DNA of 18,492 nt from a virus. Its lineage: Duplodnaviria > Heunggongvirae > Uroviricota > Caudoviricetes. Shown here in pieces: positions 10,988 to 18,492 of this stretch. Numbering within the stretch: position 1 is the first letter of the stretch; each line of letters opens with the position of its first letter. A program made the translations under genes and the position numbers. The notes beneath the pieces are model-generated. The model saw only the letters and a list, made by a program, of their open reading frames with translations. It was not told the DNA's origin and made no database searches. The stretch lies in IMG/VR virus record IMGVR_UViG_3300048058_000019; one strand, given 5' to 3'.

Positions 10988-11098
10988 TCGACCTCCTCTC
11001 AGAGTTGAGTTCCCGCGCCCTCGCCAAGCACACAGACGGGGCGGCACCGCCAGTCCATCACGCGCGCCAAGCGGCCGTCAATCACCGGTTAGCTGTGC

Positions 11099-11128
11099 AA
11101 TATAACGCTGTATTTCAAAGGTATGCAA
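11099..11128 (-). promoter_or_regulatory. sigma70-like promoter for the leftward operon
   Basis: TTGCAT-N18-TATATT on - strand, about 110 nt upstream of ATG 10987, at the divergence point. Confidence 0.45.
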
Positions 11129-11302
11129 ATTATCGGCCGAATGATGCGAATTTCTACCGCTATTGCCACAGGGTTCTTCTTCACATATGCGGTTGAGGGA
11201 GCCATCAGTTGGTGGTTGTGGGGAGTCCTGGCGGTCCTGACAGCAGCAATATTCACTTTAACTCTCTGGTATGACATACGCAAAGGTCGAGTATGTCAAT
11301 AG
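11123..11302 (+). CDS. two-helix membrane protein (59 aa)
   Basis: MQIIGRMMRISTAIATGFFFTYAVEGAISWWLWGVLAVLTAAIFTLTLWYDIRKGRVCQ. Confidence 0.6.
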   Translation: MQIIGRMMRISTAIATGFFFTYAVEGAISWWLWGVLAVLTAAIFTLTLWYDIRKGRVCQ

Positions 11303-11391
11303 TTCTAATCTGGCTTCTCTTGATTGGCTTCATTCTGGGACTGACCTGGCTCATGGACTGGTTCATCTTCAGACGTTACAAGAAGGGTTGA
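11293..11391 (+). CDS. single-helix membrane peptide (32 aa)
   Basis: MSIVLIWLLLIGFILGLTWLMDWFIFRRYKKG; hydrophobic helix with basic tail; overlaps previous stop. Confidence 0.65.
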   Translation: MSIVLIWLLLIGFILGLTWLMDWFIFRRYKKG

Positions 11392-11397
11392 AGCTAA

Positions 11398-11604
11398 GTG
11401 ATTGAGCGGTCCGCTCAGTTTAGGAGATTGGCCCCGATACTTGCACACGGTCGTGCGCCCACGTACATTGCTTCTGGGGGAGTGTGGTACATAAAAGTAA
11501 TAGCAACCAACACTCCTTACCGCAAGATTCCCTTGGCGATTTACGATGAGGAGGGCCGGGAGAGAAGGCGTGCGGCTTGGAATGCCGCACCTGAATTTTT
11601 ATGA
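11398..11604 (+). CDS. small hypothetical protein (start uncertain)
   Basis: Ends in ATGA overlap; internal YIKVIA resembles the array motif; true start may be GTG 11482. Confidence 0.4.
   Translation: MIERSAQFRRLAPILAHGRAPTYIASGGVWYIKVIATNTPYRKIPLAIYDEEGRERRRAAWNAAPEFL
11441..11469 (+). promoter_or_regulatory. sigma70-like promoter upstream of the micro-gene array
   Basis: TTGCAC-N17-TACATT. Confidence 0.45.
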
Positions 11605-11762
11605 AAGTATCAGTTAAAGGCGAATTTTATCCCGTGATTAAACATACCAACCACAAGTTAGTGTGGAAGAGAATAAAGGGGAACTTCCTTATCCGTGCTA
11701 GCAGCTCCAGTGAACCCTTCTTCGAGCCTAATCCTCCTCCAACCTACGCGTTAGCAATATGA
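11601..11762 (+). CDS. small hypothetical protein (53 aa)
   Basis: MKVSVKGEFYP...YALAI; ATGA overlaps at both ends. Confidence 0.6.
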   Translation: MKVSVKGEFYPVIKHTNHKLVWKRIKGNFLIRASSSSEPFFEPNPPPTYALAI

Positions 11763-11878
11763 ACTTCATAATTATTGGCCCCTGTATCATAAAACCCTTC
11801 CTGTCAGCGTTTTATAAGGGTAAGTTTATTGCTCATACCGAAGTCTTCATGAGAGGGGAGCTCAAGGGAGTATTATGA
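11759..11878 (+). CDS. MNF-array member 1 (39 aa)
   Basis: MNFIIIGPCIIKPFLSAFYKGKFIAHTEVFMRGELKGVL; ATGA overlaps. Confidence 0.65.
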   Translation: MNFIIIGPCIIKPFLSAFYKGKFIAHTEVFMRGELKGVL

Positions 11879-12195
11879 ACTTCTTTGATATCTTGAGCGA
11901 CTGGCTCGAAGAAGAGGGCTTCGAGGAAGAGGGCTTCCAACTTATAGTTGGGCCACCCAGCTTGGGCTCCAAAGAGAAGACGCAAATACTTGTTCATCGT
12001 TGCACTCATCCTTCTCAGTGGGGAATGTTCTTAGAGGAAGGACGTGCTGGGGTTGCTCTGGCCTGGAATTATGAGATCACTCGAGAGACACCAGATGACT
12101 TTGAGATCACTCCTCGCAAGATTCTACCCCTGTCCGATCCAAAATTCTTCTCTAAACTCAAAAGACGCCTCAACACTCACAAGTGTAAGTCATGA
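11875..12195 (+). CDS. MNF-array member 2 (106 aa)
   Basis: MNFFDILS...LPLSDPKFFSKLKRRL; AAGGGAG RBS; ATGA overlaps. Confidence 0.75.
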   Translation: MNFFDILSDWLEEEGFEEEGFQLIVGPPSLGSKEKTQILVHRCTHPSQWGMFLEEGRAGVALAWNYEITRETPDDFEITPRKILPLSDPKFFSKLKRRLNTHKCKS

Positions 12196-12323
12196 ACTTT
12201 GAGATAATTGCCCCAAGGAGATTTAAAAGTAAGCACCCAGCCTATTGGGGAGTGAGGGAAGCTTGGATGCTCAAGAAAGAGTACAGTAAAGTCAGGCGTC
12301 TAGTGAGGGAGTTCTCCAAATGA
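12192..12323 (+). CDS. MNF-array member 3 (43 aa, basic)
   Basis: MNFEIIAPRRFKSKHPAYWGVREAWMLKKEYSKVRRLVREFSK; ATGA overlaps. Confidence 0.7.
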   Translation: MNFEIIAPRRFKSKHPAYWGVREAWMLKKEYSKVRRLVREFSK

Positions 12324-12529
12324 CCGAAACAGGAATCCCCTGCTTTAAGTGTTCCAAGAGATCAGGAACCGATTGTCCGGGCCGTAAGAAAGATGAGGCG
12401 ACCCTCTGCGACCCTTGTTTTAGGGTCAAGATGCTGGTCGATAGGGGCTCTGAGGCCCAGCACCTCCTCAACCAGTTGAATGAGGGGACTCTATCTCTCA
12501 AGGACTTCTATTACTTGGTCAAGGACTAA
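12320..12529 (+). CDS. small Cys-rich putative Zn-finger protein (69 aa)
   Basis: CFKC..C..CDPC; ATGA and TAATG overlaps. Confidence 0.7.
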   Translation: MTETGIPCFKCSKRSGTDCPGRKKDEATLCDPCFRVKMLVDRGSEAQHLLNQLNEGTLSLKDFYYLVKD

Positions 12530-12636
12530 TGAATTTTAAAGTTATTGCCCCTAGGACCATCAAGTTGCATCATTGTATCCTAGGAATCCTCTATAGCCTC
12601 AAGAGGGATACCAAAAGACATCATTGGGTTGTATGA
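12529..12636 (+). CDS. MNF-array member 4 (35 aa)
   Basis: MNFKVIAPRTIKLHHCILGILYSLKRDTKRHHWVV. Confidence 0.65.
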   Translation: MNFKVIAPRTIKLHHCILGILYSLKRDTKRHHWVV

Positions 12637-12830
12637 ACTTTAAAGTCATTGTCCCATTTAAGAAGGTCCGCTTCTCACGTGTCCGTTTCGATAAGAAGAG
12701 GGTGGACACAGGACCGCTTGTTAGAGCCCGCTGGAATGGCTCAACAATTCCTCATGAGATTATTTATTGGGAGCACACTAGGCGTTTGATTTGGAGGGGA
12801 TCAGATGGGTGGAGGGATTGTGAACTTTAA
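12633..12830 (+). CDS. MNF-array member 5 (65 aa)
   Basis: MNFKVIVPFKKVRF...WRDCEL; ATGA overlap. Confidence 0.7.
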   Translation: MNFKVIVPFKKVRFSRVRFDKKRVDTGPLVRARWNGSTIPHEIIYWEHTRRLIWRGSDGWRDCEL

Positions 12831-12984
12831 GAAAGTCATATCTTCACACCTGTTCCAAGAATGGCAAAAGAACAGAAAGAAGAGGGGGCTCTTTTTTACA
12901 ACCATAATAGGTGTCCCTAGGATCCCTCACCTGTTCCCTTATCAGCTTACTGTACTGAAAACCCTTAATCGAAAATTCCAGTAA
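12820..12984 (+). CDS. MNF-array member 6 (54 aa, GTG start)
   Basis: GGAGG then GTGAACTTTAAG; MNFKKVISSHLFQEWQK...LNRKFQ. Confidence 0.55.
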   Translation: MNFKKVISSHLFQEWQKNRKKRGLFFTTIIGVPRIPHLFPYQLTVLKTLNRKFQ

Positions 12985-13342
12985 GGGCTAGCATCCACAC
13001 CGCAAGACATAGGATTAAGAACCAAAAGAGGCAGGCTAGACACCCCGCACATCCAAGGTAATCTTTATTCATGTTGCTCATACTTTAAGCTCTTAGAAAG
13101 TAAACTAAGCTGGGGAGAGGGGAACCCCCATTTGAGATATGTGTTGGGAGGGGGATCCCCCACACGTGACCGGCCCCCCTCACCCACGCAATTATTTCCA
13201 CGCGCGGGCTCTTTAGGACCTAGTTCCCCTCTCGCCCAAAGACGTCCTTAAGGCACGTCCCTATCAGGGCCAACACCGAAGCAGCAAATCCAAAGCCCAT
13301 GTAAATCATGACTTATTTACTTCAAGATGAGAGGGGGGCTTT

Positions 13343-13453
13343 ATGAAGCGATACGCCATCCAATATAAAATAGTCGCCTATCTATCGGATTTGGGAAGTA
13401 GTGAGGAGTTCCCCTCCTGTGTCATGTACATCGGTGTTCCGCACGCGGAATGA
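13343..13453 (+). CDS. possible small protein (36 aa)
   Basis: GAGGGGGG upstream; MKRYAIQYKIVAYLSDLGSSEEFPSCVMYIGVPHAE. Confidence 0.35.
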   Translation: MKRYAIQYKIVAYLSDLGSSEEFPSCVMYIGVPHAE

Positions 13454-13586
13454 TTATCGGGATGCTTATATGATCTTTGTGGGGTACAAATGATATGTGC
13501 AAAGCCGAGAGCGTGAGGCAGCGGACAAAGACCAAGGAGTAGACGCGACGACGGCCACTTTAGTACAGTCGAAGCTTATATAATTC

Positions 13587-13724
13587 ATGGACGGCGTAGA
13601 AATGTTCTGGCGGAGTCGAGAGGCTCCAGAGGGATTCTTCTTCATTTGGTTATTCTTACTGGCGTTGGCTATATTCCTGCTATTTTGGCGAGGGGATAAA
13701 GCATCAAGCTCGGATAAAGAATAG
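13587..13724 (+). CDS. single-helix membrane peptide (40-45 aa)
   Basis: ...GFFFIWLFLLALAIFLLFWRGDK...; TATAAT at 13579-13584 suggests the second ATG (13602) may be used. Confidence 0.55.
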   Translation: MDGVEMFWRSREAPEGFFFIWLFLLALAIFLLFWRGDKASSSDKE

Positions 13725-13760
13725 GGCTTCCCTCCCCCGCTATCTTCCGCTTTTTAAAAA

Positions 13761-13806
13761 GCGAGTTTCAGGGTTTTTTAAGAGGTTCCCTTGTAGCCTC
13801 TACCTC
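13761..13806. repeat. 46-bp direct repeat, copy 1
   Basis: 39/46 ungapped identity to 15031-15076. Confidence 0.85.
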
Positions 13807-13864
13807 CGGTATTGTGTGTGAGGGCTTTCCTCACCTTGGGCCCTCCATAGAGGACCAAAAGTGA

Positions 13865-13889
13865 GGCTCCCCCTTGCTCGAGGGGAGCC
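13865..13889 (-). terminator. probable intrinsic terminator of the 13909-14277 gene
   Basis: GGCTCCCC/GGGGAGCC 8-bp stem 20 nt after the stop, followed on - by TCACTTTT. Confidence 0.55.
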
Positions 13890-13908
13890 CCGTTGGTGCC
13901 TTGGGCGC

Positions 13909-14277
13909 TTACTCTTCGGAGCCCTTGGCCTGGGCGGCCTTGAAGGCGTCGAAGTCGGCCTTGTCCTGGGCCTTCTTCGCCTTCCGGGCGTCGTTGCGGT
14001 GCTCGAGGCAGACCTTCACCTGGAAGAGGTCCGAGGTGAAAACCTTCCGGCGCTGGTCGCAACCCTCGTGGGTGCACTCGATCTCCACGAACTGCTTCTT
14101 GGCGACGTCGTCCCAGGCGAGCGTCCCCTCGATGAAGACCCGGTTCTTCTCGCGAAGCTGGGCTTCCGTGACCCGGCGACCCGGCTTGCCCTCCTTGGCG
14201 ACGGCCTTGCGGATCTTGTTCTTCTGCTCGTCGGTCAGGTGGGTCATTCCGGCCAGGGTCTCTTCCACGTTCGGCAT
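13909..14277 (-). CDS. Lys/Ala-rich protein with Cx4C..Cx2H motif, paralogue A (122 aa)
   Basis: GGAGG RBS; almost all third positions G/C; about 55% identical to 17981-18424 by manual alignment. Confidence 0.9.
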   Translation of the reverse strand: MPNVEETLAGMTHLTDEQKNKIRKAVAKEGKPGRRVTEAQLREKNRVFIEGTLAWDDVAKKQFVEIECTHEGCDQRRKVFTSDLFQVKVCLEHRNDARKAKKAQDKADFDAFKAAQAKGSEE

Positions 14278-14354
14278 CTCAAACCTCCATGCTTTTACCT
14301 TGCCCTCAAGTCCCGCCGCGCCTCACGGCGCTCAAAGCGGTCTCGCGGCCCCCG

Positions 14355-14387
14355 CAGCCTAGCAGGCGCGCCGAGCCGCCGCAACCA
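14355..14387 (-). promoter_or_regulatory. extended -10 promoter, proximal copy
   Basis: TTGCGG-N17-TAGGCT with TG at the extended position; 28/33 identical to 14464-14496. Confidence 0.55.
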
Positions 14388-14463
14388 CCGGCTGAAACCC
14401 CGGCCCTTCGGGGCGGGTGAGCGGCGGCGCGGCCTTGGAGCGCGTGACAGAGCGGGACGCCAC

Positions 14464-14496
14464 CAGCCTAGCAGCCGCGCCCAGCCATCGTAACCA
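14464..14496 (-). promoter_or_regulatory. extended -10 promoter, distal copy
   Basis: TTACGA-N17-TAGGCT with extended TG; direct repeat of 14355-14387. Confidence 0.5.
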
Positions 14497-15030
14497 TCGC
14501 TTGGCTGTATGAATATGACACAAGAGAGTTTAATTAAGCATGTGCGGAATCCTAACAAATTGATTCCCGTCCCATGTGCACATGCCACAGGGCCGCTACA
14601 ATAAGAACCGCCATTGATTATAATTGCGCACGTGTTCGCGATGCATATGACACAGCAGGACTGTATTAAAAAGCGCGCGCCATCTAATGGCGGCCTGGAG
14701 ACGCGATGCATATGCTATAGCGCGTCAAAGGTCTATGTGTGGTACCGTTTAATGTGCGATATCGCGACCAGAGACCCGCGCTTCGGACGGCTAAACACGA
14801 ATCGCGGATCGGCGATCTGGGGGCACTGGGATCTTCTACATTAAGGCGGCGTATCGGCTCAATATATGCATCCCCCTCGTTCTGTCCAATTACCAGGTGG
14901 AAATACCGGCGGATATGACGCATCAAGACTTTCCCATCAAGCTAAGTGTATTGACAGGATCTCCCTCCGCCTCAGCTATCTTCCACCTGACCGCCGAGGT
15001 CAGCCTTACCCCTGGCTTCGCTCGGCGGCG

Positions 15031-15076
15031 GCGAGTTTCGCGGTTTTTAAAGAGGTTCCGCTAAAGCCTCTACCTC
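15031..15076. repeat. 46-bp direct repeat, copy 2
   Basis: 39/46 identity to 13761-13806; conserved AGAGGTT-N7-AGCCTCT. Confidence 0.85.
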
Positions 15077-15083
15077 TAGTTGT

Positions 15084-15179
15084 CTATTGACCCACTAACC
15101 CTAGGAACGCCAGGATCGCCAGGATAAACCAAAGGAAATCGAGATCCTTGCTCGATGCCTTGGCCTTCATCCTTGCCAT
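15084..15179 (-). CDS. 31-aa hydrophobic peptide
   Basis: AGGAGGG 6 nt before ATG; MARMKAKASSKDLDFLWFILAILAFLGLVGQ. Confidence 0.65.
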   Translation of the reverse strand: MARMKAKASSKDLDFLWFILAILAFLGLVGQ

Positions 15180-15229
15180 CAAGCGCCCTCCTAAAAGGGA
15201 CTCGAATTTTAAGCTCCAAGCCATAAACC

Positions 15230-16230
15230 CCCGGCATGCTTGACGCAAGCATGTTGTTCCAGTTAGGTGTGGCTGCGTCCGACCACTGCTTGGAGCAAGA
15301 TTTAGGACCCCCTGCCTTCAGCGCTCTGCGTCAGTTCTCGCCATCTCGACCGTCTGGTCTACTGGGCGTGATCTGCTCGGTCGCCTAACGGGAGGGGGTC
15401 AAATTTTTGCCCCCCTGTGAATCAGATCCCCAAAAGGAGGGGCTCTGAGTCCGGGAGGACTTTGGTCGTTTCCGTCACTTGTTTATACTCGGTTGGCGGA
15501 GAGCAACGAGTTAAACTTCCTTGCCGACCTTACCGAGTGTGTGCCGCAAAGCGGCGTTCAGCGTGTGTTACGCTGCTTTTTGATGTGAGTGCTTGCAACG
15601 ACGGCGAGCACGCCAGCCTTTGAAGGCGGCAAAGCCCCCGGTTGCTAAGATGAAGAGACCCACGAGAGCCTCCCCGATCCCGAAACAGAGACAGGCGAGT
15701 GCGGTTTCCATGAACGTTCTCCTCTCTGGATTTTTGTCAGAGACCCAGTACGTGGTTGTCTGAGGTTCCTGGTCTTAACCAGCATCAAGGGCTGCCTACT
15801 GCTTAGTCACAGATCGGCACCTAGAACCTTGAAGCCCGAGACAACCACCCAACAGGCCTCGCAGCGCAGGAACCTCTTTGCCCCTTGGGGCTTGAGGTGT
15901 GTTACGCCACATTGAGGGCTCACGCCCCACACAGGGGCTTAATTGAGCAAGTTTTACTGCCGGTCAGCGCTTAGCGCATAACTGGCCCTTTCCTCTTTGG
16001 AAGCCCGCCCAAAGCGAGGACGGACGCCCAAAGAGGGGCCCTCATCCGAGGGCCCCGGATCCAGAGAGAGGAGGTGCCTGTGCTTTCTAGCCCTTAGCGG
16101 GCAAGGCCTTTACTGCCCCCCACAGGGGAGGCGCGGCCTCTTTCGTGCGCCGCTATCCCACCAGGGCGGGCAAGCGCCCGCCACCATCCGTTAGCTGCGC
16201 TGGTCTCCATCTCGACTCCCCGCAGGGAGC
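15230..16230 (+). ncRNA. candidate large structured non-coding RNA (family not recognised; ends approximate)
   Basis: No credible ORF; more than 12 stems of 6-10 bp; G-U wobbles mostly valid on +; GGGA tetraloop; two crossed 10-bp helices. Confidence 0.5.
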
Positions 16231-16285
16231 CGGGAAGGAGAGAGGCCCGAGCACCAGACTCGGACCTCAACTCCCCGGTGCTTGG

Positions 16286-16804
16286 TTAGTTCAGCGGACC
16301 GTCCGGGATGTCACCTCGCCGCAAGCGCGGCGGGTTGAGCCCGGTGACCGGGAGCTGGGGCGAAACTCCCTCGGCTTCGGGCGGAAGCGCGCCCATACCT
16401 GCGAGCAAGGCGAGGATCGGGTTCTGCCCGCCTTCGGCCTTCATGAAGGCCGCGTGCTCCTTCTTCCAGGTCGCGATCGCCTCGGGGCTGAGGTCGATCT
16501 CGGTGGGGAGCTCACCCCGCTGGAGCTGGCTGTACTTCTCGTGCAGCAGCTCGAGGGCCGGGACGGCCTTGCCCAGCAGGTCGCCGATGAGCGCCTTGGT
16601 GTCGTGGACTCCCGCTTCCACGAACTGGGGCTCGATGACCTGGATGTCCTTGAGCTTCAAGGCCATCGCCATCGCGACCTTGGACGTGATGGTGAGGGCG
16701 GTCATGCCCTCGCGGAGAGTGCTCTTCTCCTTGTGGCTGAACGCCAGACCACAGGTGCACTCGGGGGCGAAACAGGCCGGATTCGGCTTGGCTTTCTTCT
16801 TCAC
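16286..16804 (-). CDS. hypothetical protein with N-terminal Cys cluster (172 aa)
   Basis: AAGGAGG 6 nt before GTG 16804; CFAPECTC; strong GC3 bias. Confidence 0.85.
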   Translation of the reverse strand: MKKKAKPNPACFAPECTCGLAFSHKEKSTLREGMTALTITSKVAMAMALKLKDIQVIEPQFVEAGVHDTKALIGDLLGKAVPALELLHEKYSQLQRGELPTEIDLSPEAIATWKKEHAAFMKAEGGQNPILALLAGMGALPPEAEGVSPQLPVTGLNPPRLRRGDIPDGPLN

Positions 16805-16955
16805 CAAGCACCTCCTTGAAAGAGAGTCGAAATACCTGACCACCTGGACCTTGGTGGGTTACCAAGACCAAGGTGGTGGCTCCCCGCAGGAGCCACGGCG
16901 CGGGCCTGTGCCATATCCCATCAGGATGGCCAAGCCCGCGCCACCACCGCTGTGC

Positions 16956-17177
16956 TTACCGGCGGTTCCTCTCGCCCATGGCGTGTTCGCGGGCACCCCG
17001 CAGCATGGAGCTGTTGAGCTGGATCCGCACGATCCCACGTTCGGCCAGAGCAGGCAGATTTTCTTGGATGAGCCGGTGCATCTTGCCCCGTGCATCTCCA
17101 AGGTCCAGCCTGGCTTTCTCGACGTTGACGGCTTCGCCCATCAACTGGCGCTCTACTTCCTTCATTCGTTCGTCCAC
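16956..17177 (-). CDS. small helical protein (73 aa)
   Basis: GGAGGTGCTTGGTG initiation region identical to that of 16286-16804. Confidence 0.8.
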   Translation of the reverse strand: MDERMKEVERQLMGEAVNVEKARLDLGDARGKMHRLIQENLPALAERGIVRIQLNSSMLRGAREHAMGERNRR

Positions 17178-17237
17178 CAAGCACCTCCATTAAAGAGAAA
17201 CGATCCCAAGTTTGTGTTTCCCCCTCAAGTGTGGTAC

Positions 17238-17420
17238 CTAGAGCCCTTGACCAGCAGCTCTTTCCCTCCGTCCCTCCAGATCCTTGATCTCCTTGGAGAT
17301 CCTCTCAACTTCGGGACTGGCCTTGATGAGCTTCGCCGCTTCAAGGCGACGATAGGCCCCTTCGATCGCCCGGGTGAACCGGACGACGTCCTGCTCCTTC
17401 TGAGTGAGGGTTCCTAACAT
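17238..17420 (-). CDS. small helical or coiled-coil protein (60 aa)
   Basis: GGGAGGT RBS. Confidence 0.75.
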   Translation of the reverse strand: MLGTLTQKEQDVVRFTRAIEGAYRRLEAAKLIKASPEVERISKEIKDLEGRRERAAGQGL

Positions 17421-17484
17421 ATGTCACCTCCCTGAGACGTACCTCACGACTCATATTTTGTGTGGTACGCCTTAGGGAAGCCCC

Positions 17485-17688
17485 CTACTTAAGGGGGAAC
17501 CCCGCCACCTTGTACGTTGCCGCTATAGACCTTAAGCCCATAGCTTGCAAGTAGTAGGTTGCTCGGATAGAGGGCCACCTGTTTCCAAGGGCCCTCAGTT
17601 CACGGGCCTTCTCCAATGCCCACTTTCTGGCAAGGTATAGACCCCTTGCCTGTCCGTGATTGAAGGCAACAGCTTCTCCTACCAGCAC
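17485..17688 (-). CDS. small basic hypothetical protein (67 aa)
   Basis: AAAGGAGG before GTG 17688. Confidence 0.6.
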   Translation of the reverse strand: MLVGEAVAFNHGQARGLYLARKWALEKARELRALGNRWPSIRATYYLQAMGLRSIAATYKVAGFPLK

Positions 17689-17936
17689 GGTGCCTCCTTT
17701 CTCCCTAGGAGCTCGGATCACGAGCGCCTAGAGAGGCCCCCGATCGGGGGCCAGGTAGAAACTAGACGGCCGGAGGCGCGATTGAGGCTGCCCAGAGCAC
17801 GGACTCGCGTGGGCTCCAGCGCGAAGGTTAGGCTAGTTCACAAGCATCTCCTTCATGTGTTAGAGTTGGCCGTGGGATGAAAGATAGCGCTATCTCCACT
17901 CGAGCCCCCGGTGTGTTACAGGAGCTTGAGTGGAGA

Positions 17937-17962
17937 GGGGTGCCCCCTTTCGGGAGCACCCC
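17937..17962 (-). terminator. 11-bp GAAA-tetraloop hairpin after paralogue B
   Basis: GGGGTGCTCCC-GAAA-GGGGGCACCCC on -; no U-tract, so may be a stabilising or processing hairpin. Confidence 0.5.
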
Positions 17963-17980
17963 CGCTCCGGCCCGTGTGTG

Positions 17981-18424
17981 TTACTCCTCGACTTCGGCCT
18001 CGCCCTCGGGCTCGGCCTCGGCCTCGGGCTCCGCCGTGGTCGTGGCCTCGGCGGCGCGCTGCTTCTTGAAGTCCTCGAAGGCCACCTTGTCGGCGTCCTT
18101 CTTGGCCTTCTTGGCGGCAGCCCGGTGGTCCAGACACACCTTGACCTGGAAGAGGTCGCTGGTGTAGACGTCCCGCTTGGTGCTGCAGCCGGAGTGCGTG
18201 CAGACGATCGTGACCTGCTGCTTGCCTGCCGCCTCGTCCCAGCGGAGGCTGTCCTTGACGACGTGGGCGTACTTGCCCTCGATCGTCTCCTTGGAGATCC
18301 GGCGGCCCTTGCCCGCCTTCTCCTTGGCCACCGCCTTGCGGATCGTCTCCTTCTGAGCGTCCGTGAGGTGGCTCATTCCCGCGAGCGTCTTCTCGACCTC
18401 GGGGGAGCTCTTGAGATCGGCCAT
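17981..18424 (-). CDS. Lys/Ala-rich protein with Cx4C..Cx2H motif and acidic tail, paralogue B (147 aa)
   Basis: AGGAGG RBS; CTHSGC..TSDLFQVKVCLDH; AEPEAEAEPEGEAEVEE tail; extreme GC3. Confidence 0.9.
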   Translation of the reverse strand: MADLKSSPEVEKTLAGMSHLTDAQKETIRKAVAKEKAGKGRRISKETIEGKYAHVVKDSLRWDEAAGKQQVTIVCTHSGCSTKRDVYTSDLFQVKVCLDHRAAAKKAKKDADKVAFEDFKKQRAAEATTTAEPEAEAEPEGEAEVEE

Positions 18425-18492
18425 TCTGGCCTCCTGTCTTCTTGGGGGGTCTTCCCGCCGGGGTCCCCCCCCGGCCGGGCCGCTCCGCCTTG

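Follow-up and report, generated by a model that had tools for sequence, protein, structure and literature searches.

Here, we report a conserved, structured non-coding element of 574 nucleotides (nt), termed element A, on the minus strand of an 18,492-nt stretch of DNA (the window) from an uncultivated jumbo phage (IMG/VR record IMGVR_UViG_3300048058_000019). Element A starts at the stop codon of a gene for a 173-amino-acid (aa) protein and runs down to a gene for a 47-aa membrane peptide. It is non-coding, folds stably on the minus strand and cannot be placed in any described RNA family. Because it is predicted to mask the ribosome-binding site of the peptide gene both in this phage and in a diverged relative, we tentatively interpret element A as a cis-acting leader of very large size that controls the translation of the 47-aa gene. 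A preliminary description of the window, made from its letters alone, had proposed at 15230-16230 a single plus-strand RNA of about 1 kilobase (kb), of unrecognised class and without a credible open reading frame (ORF). Its observation was partly confirmed and its interpretation partly supported. The flagged kilobase is a minus-strand expression unit rather than one RNA, and the order along the minus strand is the stop codon of the 173-aa gene, element A (16285-15712), the 47-aa gene (15711-15568) and a hairpin-rich spacer (Table 1).

Conservation and uniqueness of element A

The flagged kilobase falls in the gene-poor interval 14278-16285, between minus-strand genes at 13909-14277 and 16286-16807. 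Its flanking genes are all on the minus strand, and nearly all proteins around it are without family assignment. The same locus was found on public contigs of 384,188 and 124,844 bases. The public contigs that carry the locus (n = 10) are all 100% identical over 14278-16285 and therefore contribute no variation. The sole diverged relative is L011, a 2.4-kb ENA metagenome scaffold, which was found via its 172-aa protein (P0006) resembling the 173-aa protein (47-49% identity); searches of two very large libraries gave two members for this protein family, a figure that holds among 1.84 billion representatives. The L011 DNA was aligned to the minus strand of the window from 16893 to 14600, and the comparison of structure and conservation was made between these two sequences.

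Element A is 77.1% identical between the window and L011, compared with 63.9% for the adjacent 173-aa gene, and it contains invariant blocks of 25-31 nt. Its differences fall on the three positions modulo 3 as 34/44/39, without 3-base periodicity, and its insertions and deletions are 1, 1, 3, 20, 1, 7, 11, 39 and 5 nt long. In the window, all sense frames of element A contain stops (5-8 each). Neither a kept frame nor a third-position bias, the two marks of a coding gene that were looked for, was found between the window and L011.

We searched Rfam with the whole window at the gathering score, and with 11000-16500, 15650-16350 and L011 at E ≤ 10; the matches returned, to microRNAs and small RNAs, were all at chance level. 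The preliminary description had called the class unrecognised and had assigned it neither to GOLLD nor to ROOL, two families of large RNAs. This was borne out, in that the structured conserved element is without an Rfam family at either threshold and neither the window nor L011 gave a covariance-model match to GOLLD or ROOL at E ≤ 10. A second copy of element A was absent from the approximately 40 kb of this phage examined, and phage GenBank records gave no DNA match, near or distant. Scans of viral contigs with proteins and with DNA motifs also returned nothing. Genome contigs were scanned with DNA motifs, which gave no match in one scan and 16 in another. None of the 16 was similar to element A beyond approximately 23 bases, and they were thus taken as chance matches; most lie in a conserved bacterial protein-coding gene reading ...EMETSAA..., presumably lepA, and the rest in unrelated contexts.

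Stability and strand of the fold

All stems listed in the preliminary description were found in the sequence at the coordinates given there, and folding was better than that of dinucleotide-shuffled controls. For element A, the single-sequence z scores on the sense (minus) strand were -7.68 in the window and -4.89 in L011, and those on the antisense (plus) strand were -4.99 and -2.97, respectively. For 15180-15585 in the window, which includes the spacer, the z scores were -5.45 (minus) and -3.72 (plus). The two-sequence consensus energy was -207.9 kcal/mol on the minus strand versus -168.5 kcal/mol on the plus strand, and the column-shuffle z score of the consensus fold was -11.4 versus -6.2. 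Element A is thus thermodynamically stable and favours the minus strand, as do all flanking genes. The plus-strand assignment of the preliminary description was overturned, since in both phages it is the minus strand that folds better, and only for this strand were the tests of structure conservation positive.

To these tests belong two null models of the consensus energy. When the positions of the substitutions were redistributed over the alignment, none of 200 replicates reached the real energy, and the substitutions avoid the complementary blocks. When the substituted columns were kept and the bases were redrawn, the real energy was reached by 1 of 200 replicates on the minus strand and by 7 of 200 on the plus strand. 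In addition, the independent minimum-energy folds of the two phages have 91 minus-strand pairs in common versus 61.5 ± 17 in the null, in which 8 of 200 replicates reach 91; the same test on the plus strand was not significant. Among high-confidence pairs (p ≥ 0.98) that had changed, 11/19 and 9/16 were kept on the minus strand, compared with about 41% in slid controls, while 1/6 and 4/12 were kept on the plus strand. Furthermore, the conserved blocks of element A are mutually complementary, and each lineage carries its own hairpin insertion. These results suggest that the structure of element A is conserved beyond its sequence, to a modest degree.

A count of compensatory pairs was also tried as a proof of structure and was rejected, as null simulations gave similar counts. 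Covariation, which the preliminary description had named as a check, is weak in the two sequences compared: the compensatory pair count was at the null level, and the energy and shared-pair nulls gave about 1/200 to 8/200 on the minus strand.

In the consensus fold, the 5' third of element A is a row of stable hairpins (H1, H2, H4 and H5), followed by a pyrimidine block and then by a multi-helix domain of approximately 330 nt, which makes up the 3' two-thirds and consists of H6, H7, H9, H10 and a long helix with two inner hairpins (Table 1). This long helix contains several G-U pairs that would be A-C mismatches if the RNA were read from the plus strand. In L011, an 11-nt deletion in H7 affects the loop only, and a 20-nt hairpin insertion specific to L011 is found at the tip of the long helix. 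A GGCGGGC/GCCCGCC hairpin (16165/16176) of the preliminary description is not retained in L011.

Table 1. Features of the element A region and copies of the 9-mer GTAMCACAC in the window, with their state in L011 (bp, base pairs)
Feature	Position	Strand	Remarks
173-aa gene	16286-16807	-	upstream context; stop codon marks start of element A
Element A, conserved structured non-coding, 574 nt	15712-16285	-	between 173-aa gene and 47-aa gene
Hairpin H1, 10 bp	16242-16268	-	just past 173-aa stop; present in L011 with a different loop and one A-U pair replaced by G-C (double change)
Hairpin H2, 14 bp, small bulges	16205-16240	-	retained in L011, where one C-G pair is replaced by G-C (double change)
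Hairpin H4	16117-16131	-	CCUCC/GGGGG in window, CGCGC/GCGCG in L011; two double changes and one single, none broken
Pyrimidine block CUCCUCUCU (anti-Shine-Dalgarno)	16065-16073	-	predicted partner 15719-15727 in both phages
Hairpin H6, GGGGCCCUC/GAGGGCCCC	16035-16056	-	stem at 16035/16048 of the preliminary description; 9-bp stem invariant; loop GGAU in window, GAGUA in L011
Helix H7 and inner hairpin	15994-16034	-	stem CCTCTTTGG/CCAAAGAGG of the preliminary description; 12 bp; one double change, two wobble changes
Window-only hairpin insertion, 39 nt	15954-15992	-	absent from L011
Helix H9, GCUCA/UGAGC around CCCC/GGGG	15918-15948	-	outer stem invariant; in the inner stem one C-G pair is replaced by U-A (double change)
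Helix H10, three stacked stems	15861-15910	-	in L011, G-C replaced by U-A (double change), three wobble changes and 3 nt inserted in a loop
Internal signal copy GUAACACAC	15897-15905	-	in 28-nt invariant block; 186 nt upstream of peptide start codon
Long irregular helix, 23 bp (15835-15860 with 15740-15766)	15740-15860	-	two small hairpins inside; three single wobble changes
Shine-Dalgarno block AGAGAGGAG of 47-aa gene	15719-15727	-	end of element A
47-aa peptide gene	15568-15711	-	hydrophobic N-terminal helix, basic Cys/His-containing tail; also called as a gene in public assemblies
Lineage-specific hairpin-rich spacer	15225-15567		approximately 75 nt in L011
GTAMCACAC copies	1058-1066, 2982-2990, 11482-11490, 14737-14745, 15563-15571	-	window
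GTAMCACAC copies	15897-15905, 17229-17237, 17460-17468, 17911-17919, 17976-17984	-	window

The 47-aa peptide gene

Where the preliminary description saw no credible ORF, the minus strand carries the conserved ORF of the 47-aa peptide, with GGAG 8 nt ahead of the ATG. The peptide is 77% identical to a 48-aa peptide of L011, and the codons of the two genes differ at 17 synonymous and 9 non-synonymous sites. The differences fall mainly on the third codon position (6/5/22 for positions one to three), and the peptide has a hydrophobic segment at approximately residues 4-30. Judged by this pattern of substitution, the 47-aa membrane-peptide gene is real.

Searches of Pfam, PHROGs and the ESM Atlas with this and the other peptides and with the 173-aa protein gave nothing above threshold, and the 47-aa peptide matches no toxin family. 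A sub-threshold match to a FeoB-associated Cys-rich membrane protein (E 0.005) was obtained with the L011 peptide only. A similarity search with the 47-aa peptide returned only itself, and a metagenome scan with the peptide alignment returned a single unrelated membrane protein (L014).

The proposed single element of about 1 kb was not upheld either, since a coding gene sits in the middle of the block and 15225-15567 is mostly absent from L011. Two of its structural features turn out to be parts of the peptide gene: the GTGCTTGC/GCGAGCAC stem lies inside this gene, as does the GAGACC arm at 15655 of the closing helix GAGACC/GGTCTC. The suggestion that the stretch might hold two RNAs, the second of about 550 nt at roughly 15655-16202, came close to the conserved 574-nt element in its extent; the plus-strand boundaries given for it failed.

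Predicted masking of the ribosome-binding site

The pyrimidine block of element A is predicted to pair with the Shine-Dalgarno block of the 47-aa gene. In both phages, the pairing of 16065-16073 with 15719-15727 has a partition-function probability of 0.5-0.99, and the ribosome-binding site is predicted to have an unpaired probability of ≤ 0.1 in the long RNA. This masking helix, whose arms are approximately 345 nt apart, is also present in both independent minimum-energy folds.

A 9-mer, GTAMCACAC, occurs ten times in the window, always on the minus strand, versus 0.04 copies expected. Five further copies are present in L011, two in L009 and one in L010, the last two being contigs that carry relatives of a Cys3His protein of this phage; the 9-mer is thus common to four related phages. 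The copies are intergenic, at or just past stop codons or 20-60 nt ahead of start codons; one lies in the divergent region that heads a long leftward operon, and one overlaps the stop codon of the 47-aa gene. GTAMCACAC is probably a promoter or an RNA-processing signal of this phage group. In a transcript that runs from the internal copy of the 9-mer and lacks the masking block, the ribosome-binding site is predicted to be mostly free in the window.

We propose the following mechanism. The multi-helix domain would be closed by the pairing of the pyrimidine block (16073-16065) with the ribosome-binding site (15727-15719), and on read-through transcripts from the 173-aa gene the 47-aa peptide would stay untranslated. 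The internal copy GUAACACAC at 15905-15897 probably marks a transcript start or a processing site, and a start or cut there could yield a shorter mRNA without the masking block. In this mechanism, the pairing over a long range, the part played by the 9-mer and the transcripts with their ends are inferred only.

Several results weigh against a cis-acting leader of this kind. Both masking arms are invariant, and covariation can therefore neither support nor refute the helix. L011 lacks one C that extends the masking helix in the window, and its ribosome-binding site is predicted to be only partly free even in the short form. With GUAACACAC inside it, element A may never have its two halves on a single RNA. 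As to the fold as a whole, covariation cannot be established because there are only two lineages: 12 consensus pairs are double-compensated versus 9.2 ± 2.5 in the null, and 42 of 200 null alignments reach 12. When the full minimum-energy structure of one phage was tested against the sequence of the other, 26 changed pairs were kept versus 40 broken, a ratio like that of slid controls, and in a span-limited version of this cross-test the changed pairs were likewise kept at chance level. Finally, a coarse scan gave negative z scores across 15000-18450, coding sequence included, and strongly negative ones at 16800-18450. Since neighbouring intergenic and coding stretches also have negative z scores, stable hairpins are a regional habit and not unique to element A.

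Alternative explanations

It is rather unlikely, in our estimate, that the region is ordinary intergenic DNA, dense in signals and belonging to genes that are expressed early or strongly, in which small elements, namely stabilising or terminating hairpins, a promoter or processing 9-mer and a ribosome-binding site, are conserved separately without a single fold or long-range regulation. Such a region would fit a setting that is gene-poor and hairpin-rich from 13.7 to 18.5 kb, with negative z scores throughout, and in which 7 of the 10 copies of GTAMCACAC lie between 14737 and 17984 and conserved covarying hairpins are also found upstream of the 173-aa gene and downstream of a gene for a 31-aa peptide. 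The chance-level retention of individual pairs over the whole element agrees with it as well, and so does the local nature of all stems except the masking helix and two weak 3-bp stems. However, 574 nt is long for a phage spacer, and chance would hardly give both phages 9 nt that are exactly complementary to the ribosome-binding site. The invariant blocks, moreover, have complementary partners at distances of up to 120 nt, for example in the 23-bp helix, and the independent folds have more common pairs than the null.

Alternatively, element A could be a free-standing large structured RNA similar to ROOL or GOLLD, processed or transcribed separately and acting in trans or as a scaffold, with the proximity of the peptide being incidental. 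This we consider unlikely. ROOL and GOLLD RNAs, for which cryo-EM structures are available (bioRxiv 10.1101/2024.12.08.627333), are like element A several hundred nt long, with many helices and junctions, and are often phage- or prophage-borne. The 574 nt of element A are close to the ROOL average of 581 nt (PMC5737381). A free-standing RNA would also account for the large number of helices, for the multi-branch junctions, for invariant blocks 25-31 nt long and for the hairpin insertions peculiar to each lineage, for a stability far beyond that of shuffled controls and for the lack of a match to any known family. By contrast, no promoter or terminator of its own was found at the ends of element A, and the element continues directly into the ribosome-binding site of the next gene, which it probably masks, suggesting a role in cis. 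It also holds an internal copy of an intergenic signal. ROOL and GOLLD frequently adjoin tRNA genes, whereas a scan of the 18.5-kb window by ARAGORN found neither tRNA nor tmRNA. They span several phyla, whereas element A occurs in two lineages only, despite scans of viral, genome and metagenome collections and protein searches.

The plus-strand RNAs of the preliminary description, one ending at 15559-15581 and a second starting from 15643-15651, might be antisense regulators of the peptide gene, and type I toxin systems often control small membrane peptides by antisense RNAs. The terminator-like, -10-like and closing sequences on which they were based do exist, and some stems have G-U pairs on the plus strand only, such as TATACTCGGT/ACCGAGTGTG and the window-only insertion hairpin. 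We nevertheless consider plus-strand RNAs very improbable: folding of this strand is weaker in both phages, its conservation tests failed, and its signals are not kept. The terminator (a hairpin and T5) has lost its 5' arm and its T-run in L011, and the extended -10, being inside the peptide gene, is altered at several bases there (TGCTAAGAT to GGCGAGGAC).

That element A represents a gene in decay, or one that is read unusually, is hardly credible: one L011 frame has a single stop over 538 nt and a short ATG-led frame at 16210 is preceded by GGAG, but the window has 5-8 stops per sense frame, the ends of the short frame differ between the two phages, indels of 1, 1, 20, 1, 7, 11 and 5 nt break any frame, and the differences are even over the codon positions.

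Comparison with known leaders and significance

In bacteria and phages, large structured RNAs are a rarity, and the small number of classes described so far have shown unexpected architectures. The mRNA leader of the type I toxin gene hok hides its ribosome-binding site by RNA folding. The leaders of dinQ (PMC5066626) and timP (PMC13000454) do so likewise. The locus described here has in common with these systems a small hydrophobic peptide with a basic tail, a primary transcript that would be inert owing to a paired Shine-Dalgarno site (here predicted) and a shorter or refolded RNA that could be the active form. Unlike type I toxin leaders, element A is three to five times longer and has its masking partner approximately 345 nt off. 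The setting differs too, being a jumbo-phage gene cluster, and the peptide is at most a candidate toxin. A conserved antisense RNA of the type I antitoxin kind was not found, as the only promoter- and terminator-like sites on the plus strand are not kept in L011. Element A also resembles riboswitches and other cis-acting leaders, in which a conserved structured domain lies directly ahead of a gene and the ribosome-binding site is part of the closing helix. It differs from riboswitches in that the gene context suggests no ligand or protein partner and in a size far beyond that of typical aptamers.

We give a low probability to the more far-reaching idea that element A is a giant RNA switch or a free-standing ornate RNA, the founding member of a phage RNA class of approximately 0.55 kb. 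In the case of a switch, a membrane-active 47-aa peptide would not be made from long transcripts, and a short transcript or a cut at GUAACACAC would release it. If true, this would be a type-I-toxin-like timing device within a jumbo phage.

Element A is new and unusually large, yet it is known from two sequences. A 574-nt folded segment that is conserved above the adjacent protein gene suggests a function at the RNA level in poorly understood giant phages. If the masking helix of the proposed cis-acting leader is real, element A would be a translational gate of unusual size, acting on a small membrane peptide, and would link the timing of gene expression in jumbo phages to the logic of type I toxin mRNAs. 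The 9-mer may be a first point of entry to the signals for transcription or RNA processing in this phage group.

Neighbouring genes and elements

Other copies of the spacer at 15225-15567 were not found in approximately 40 kb of this phage. Next to it on the minus strand, at 15084-15179, is a second conserved micro-gene. It encodes a 31-aa peptide with a basic N-terminus and a hydrophobic C-terminus, has an AGGAGG site and is retained in L011 as a 29-aa ORF. The minus-strand genes for the 31-aa peptide, the 173-aa protein and a 74-aa protein have in common a 29-nt translation-start cassette, TCGA.TCTCTTT.AAGGAGGTGCTTG(G/A)TG, at 15177-15205, 16802-16830 and 17175-17203.

The region is bracketed by two paralogous Lys/Ala-rich Cys3His proteins, encoded on the minus strand at 13909-14277 (122 aa) and 17981-18424, whose upstream sequences are duplicated too. 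The Cys3His family comprises four clusters, with relatives at 50-55% identity on three short metagenome contigs; two contigs of this family, L009 and L010, bear no resemblance to element A. Upstream of the Cys3His gene, CATATGCATCGC occurs at 14638-14649 and 14703-14714, 65 nt apart, and both copies are invariant in L011.

After the 31-aa gene follows element B (14925-15083, minus strand), a conserved (82%) non-coding stretch of approximately 150 nt. It forms two hairpins, with 5 double compensatory changes among 35 pairs and none broken. Parts of element B are repeated elsewhere: about 46 nt are found again at 13761-13806, behind the Cys3His gene, and L010 has a 39-nt stretch of it, at 79% identity, following its Cys3His homologue. 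A sigma-70-like site, TGGACA-16-TATATT, lies on the minus strand at 14888-14861, and its -10 region is conserved too. Strong hairpins were also observed at 16844-16950 (minus strand), between the 74-aa and 173-aa genes, with z scores of -6.9 and -5.1. L011 retains these hairpins through compensatory changes such as GUGGCUCC/GGGAGCCAC versus GUGCUCC/GGGAGCAC.

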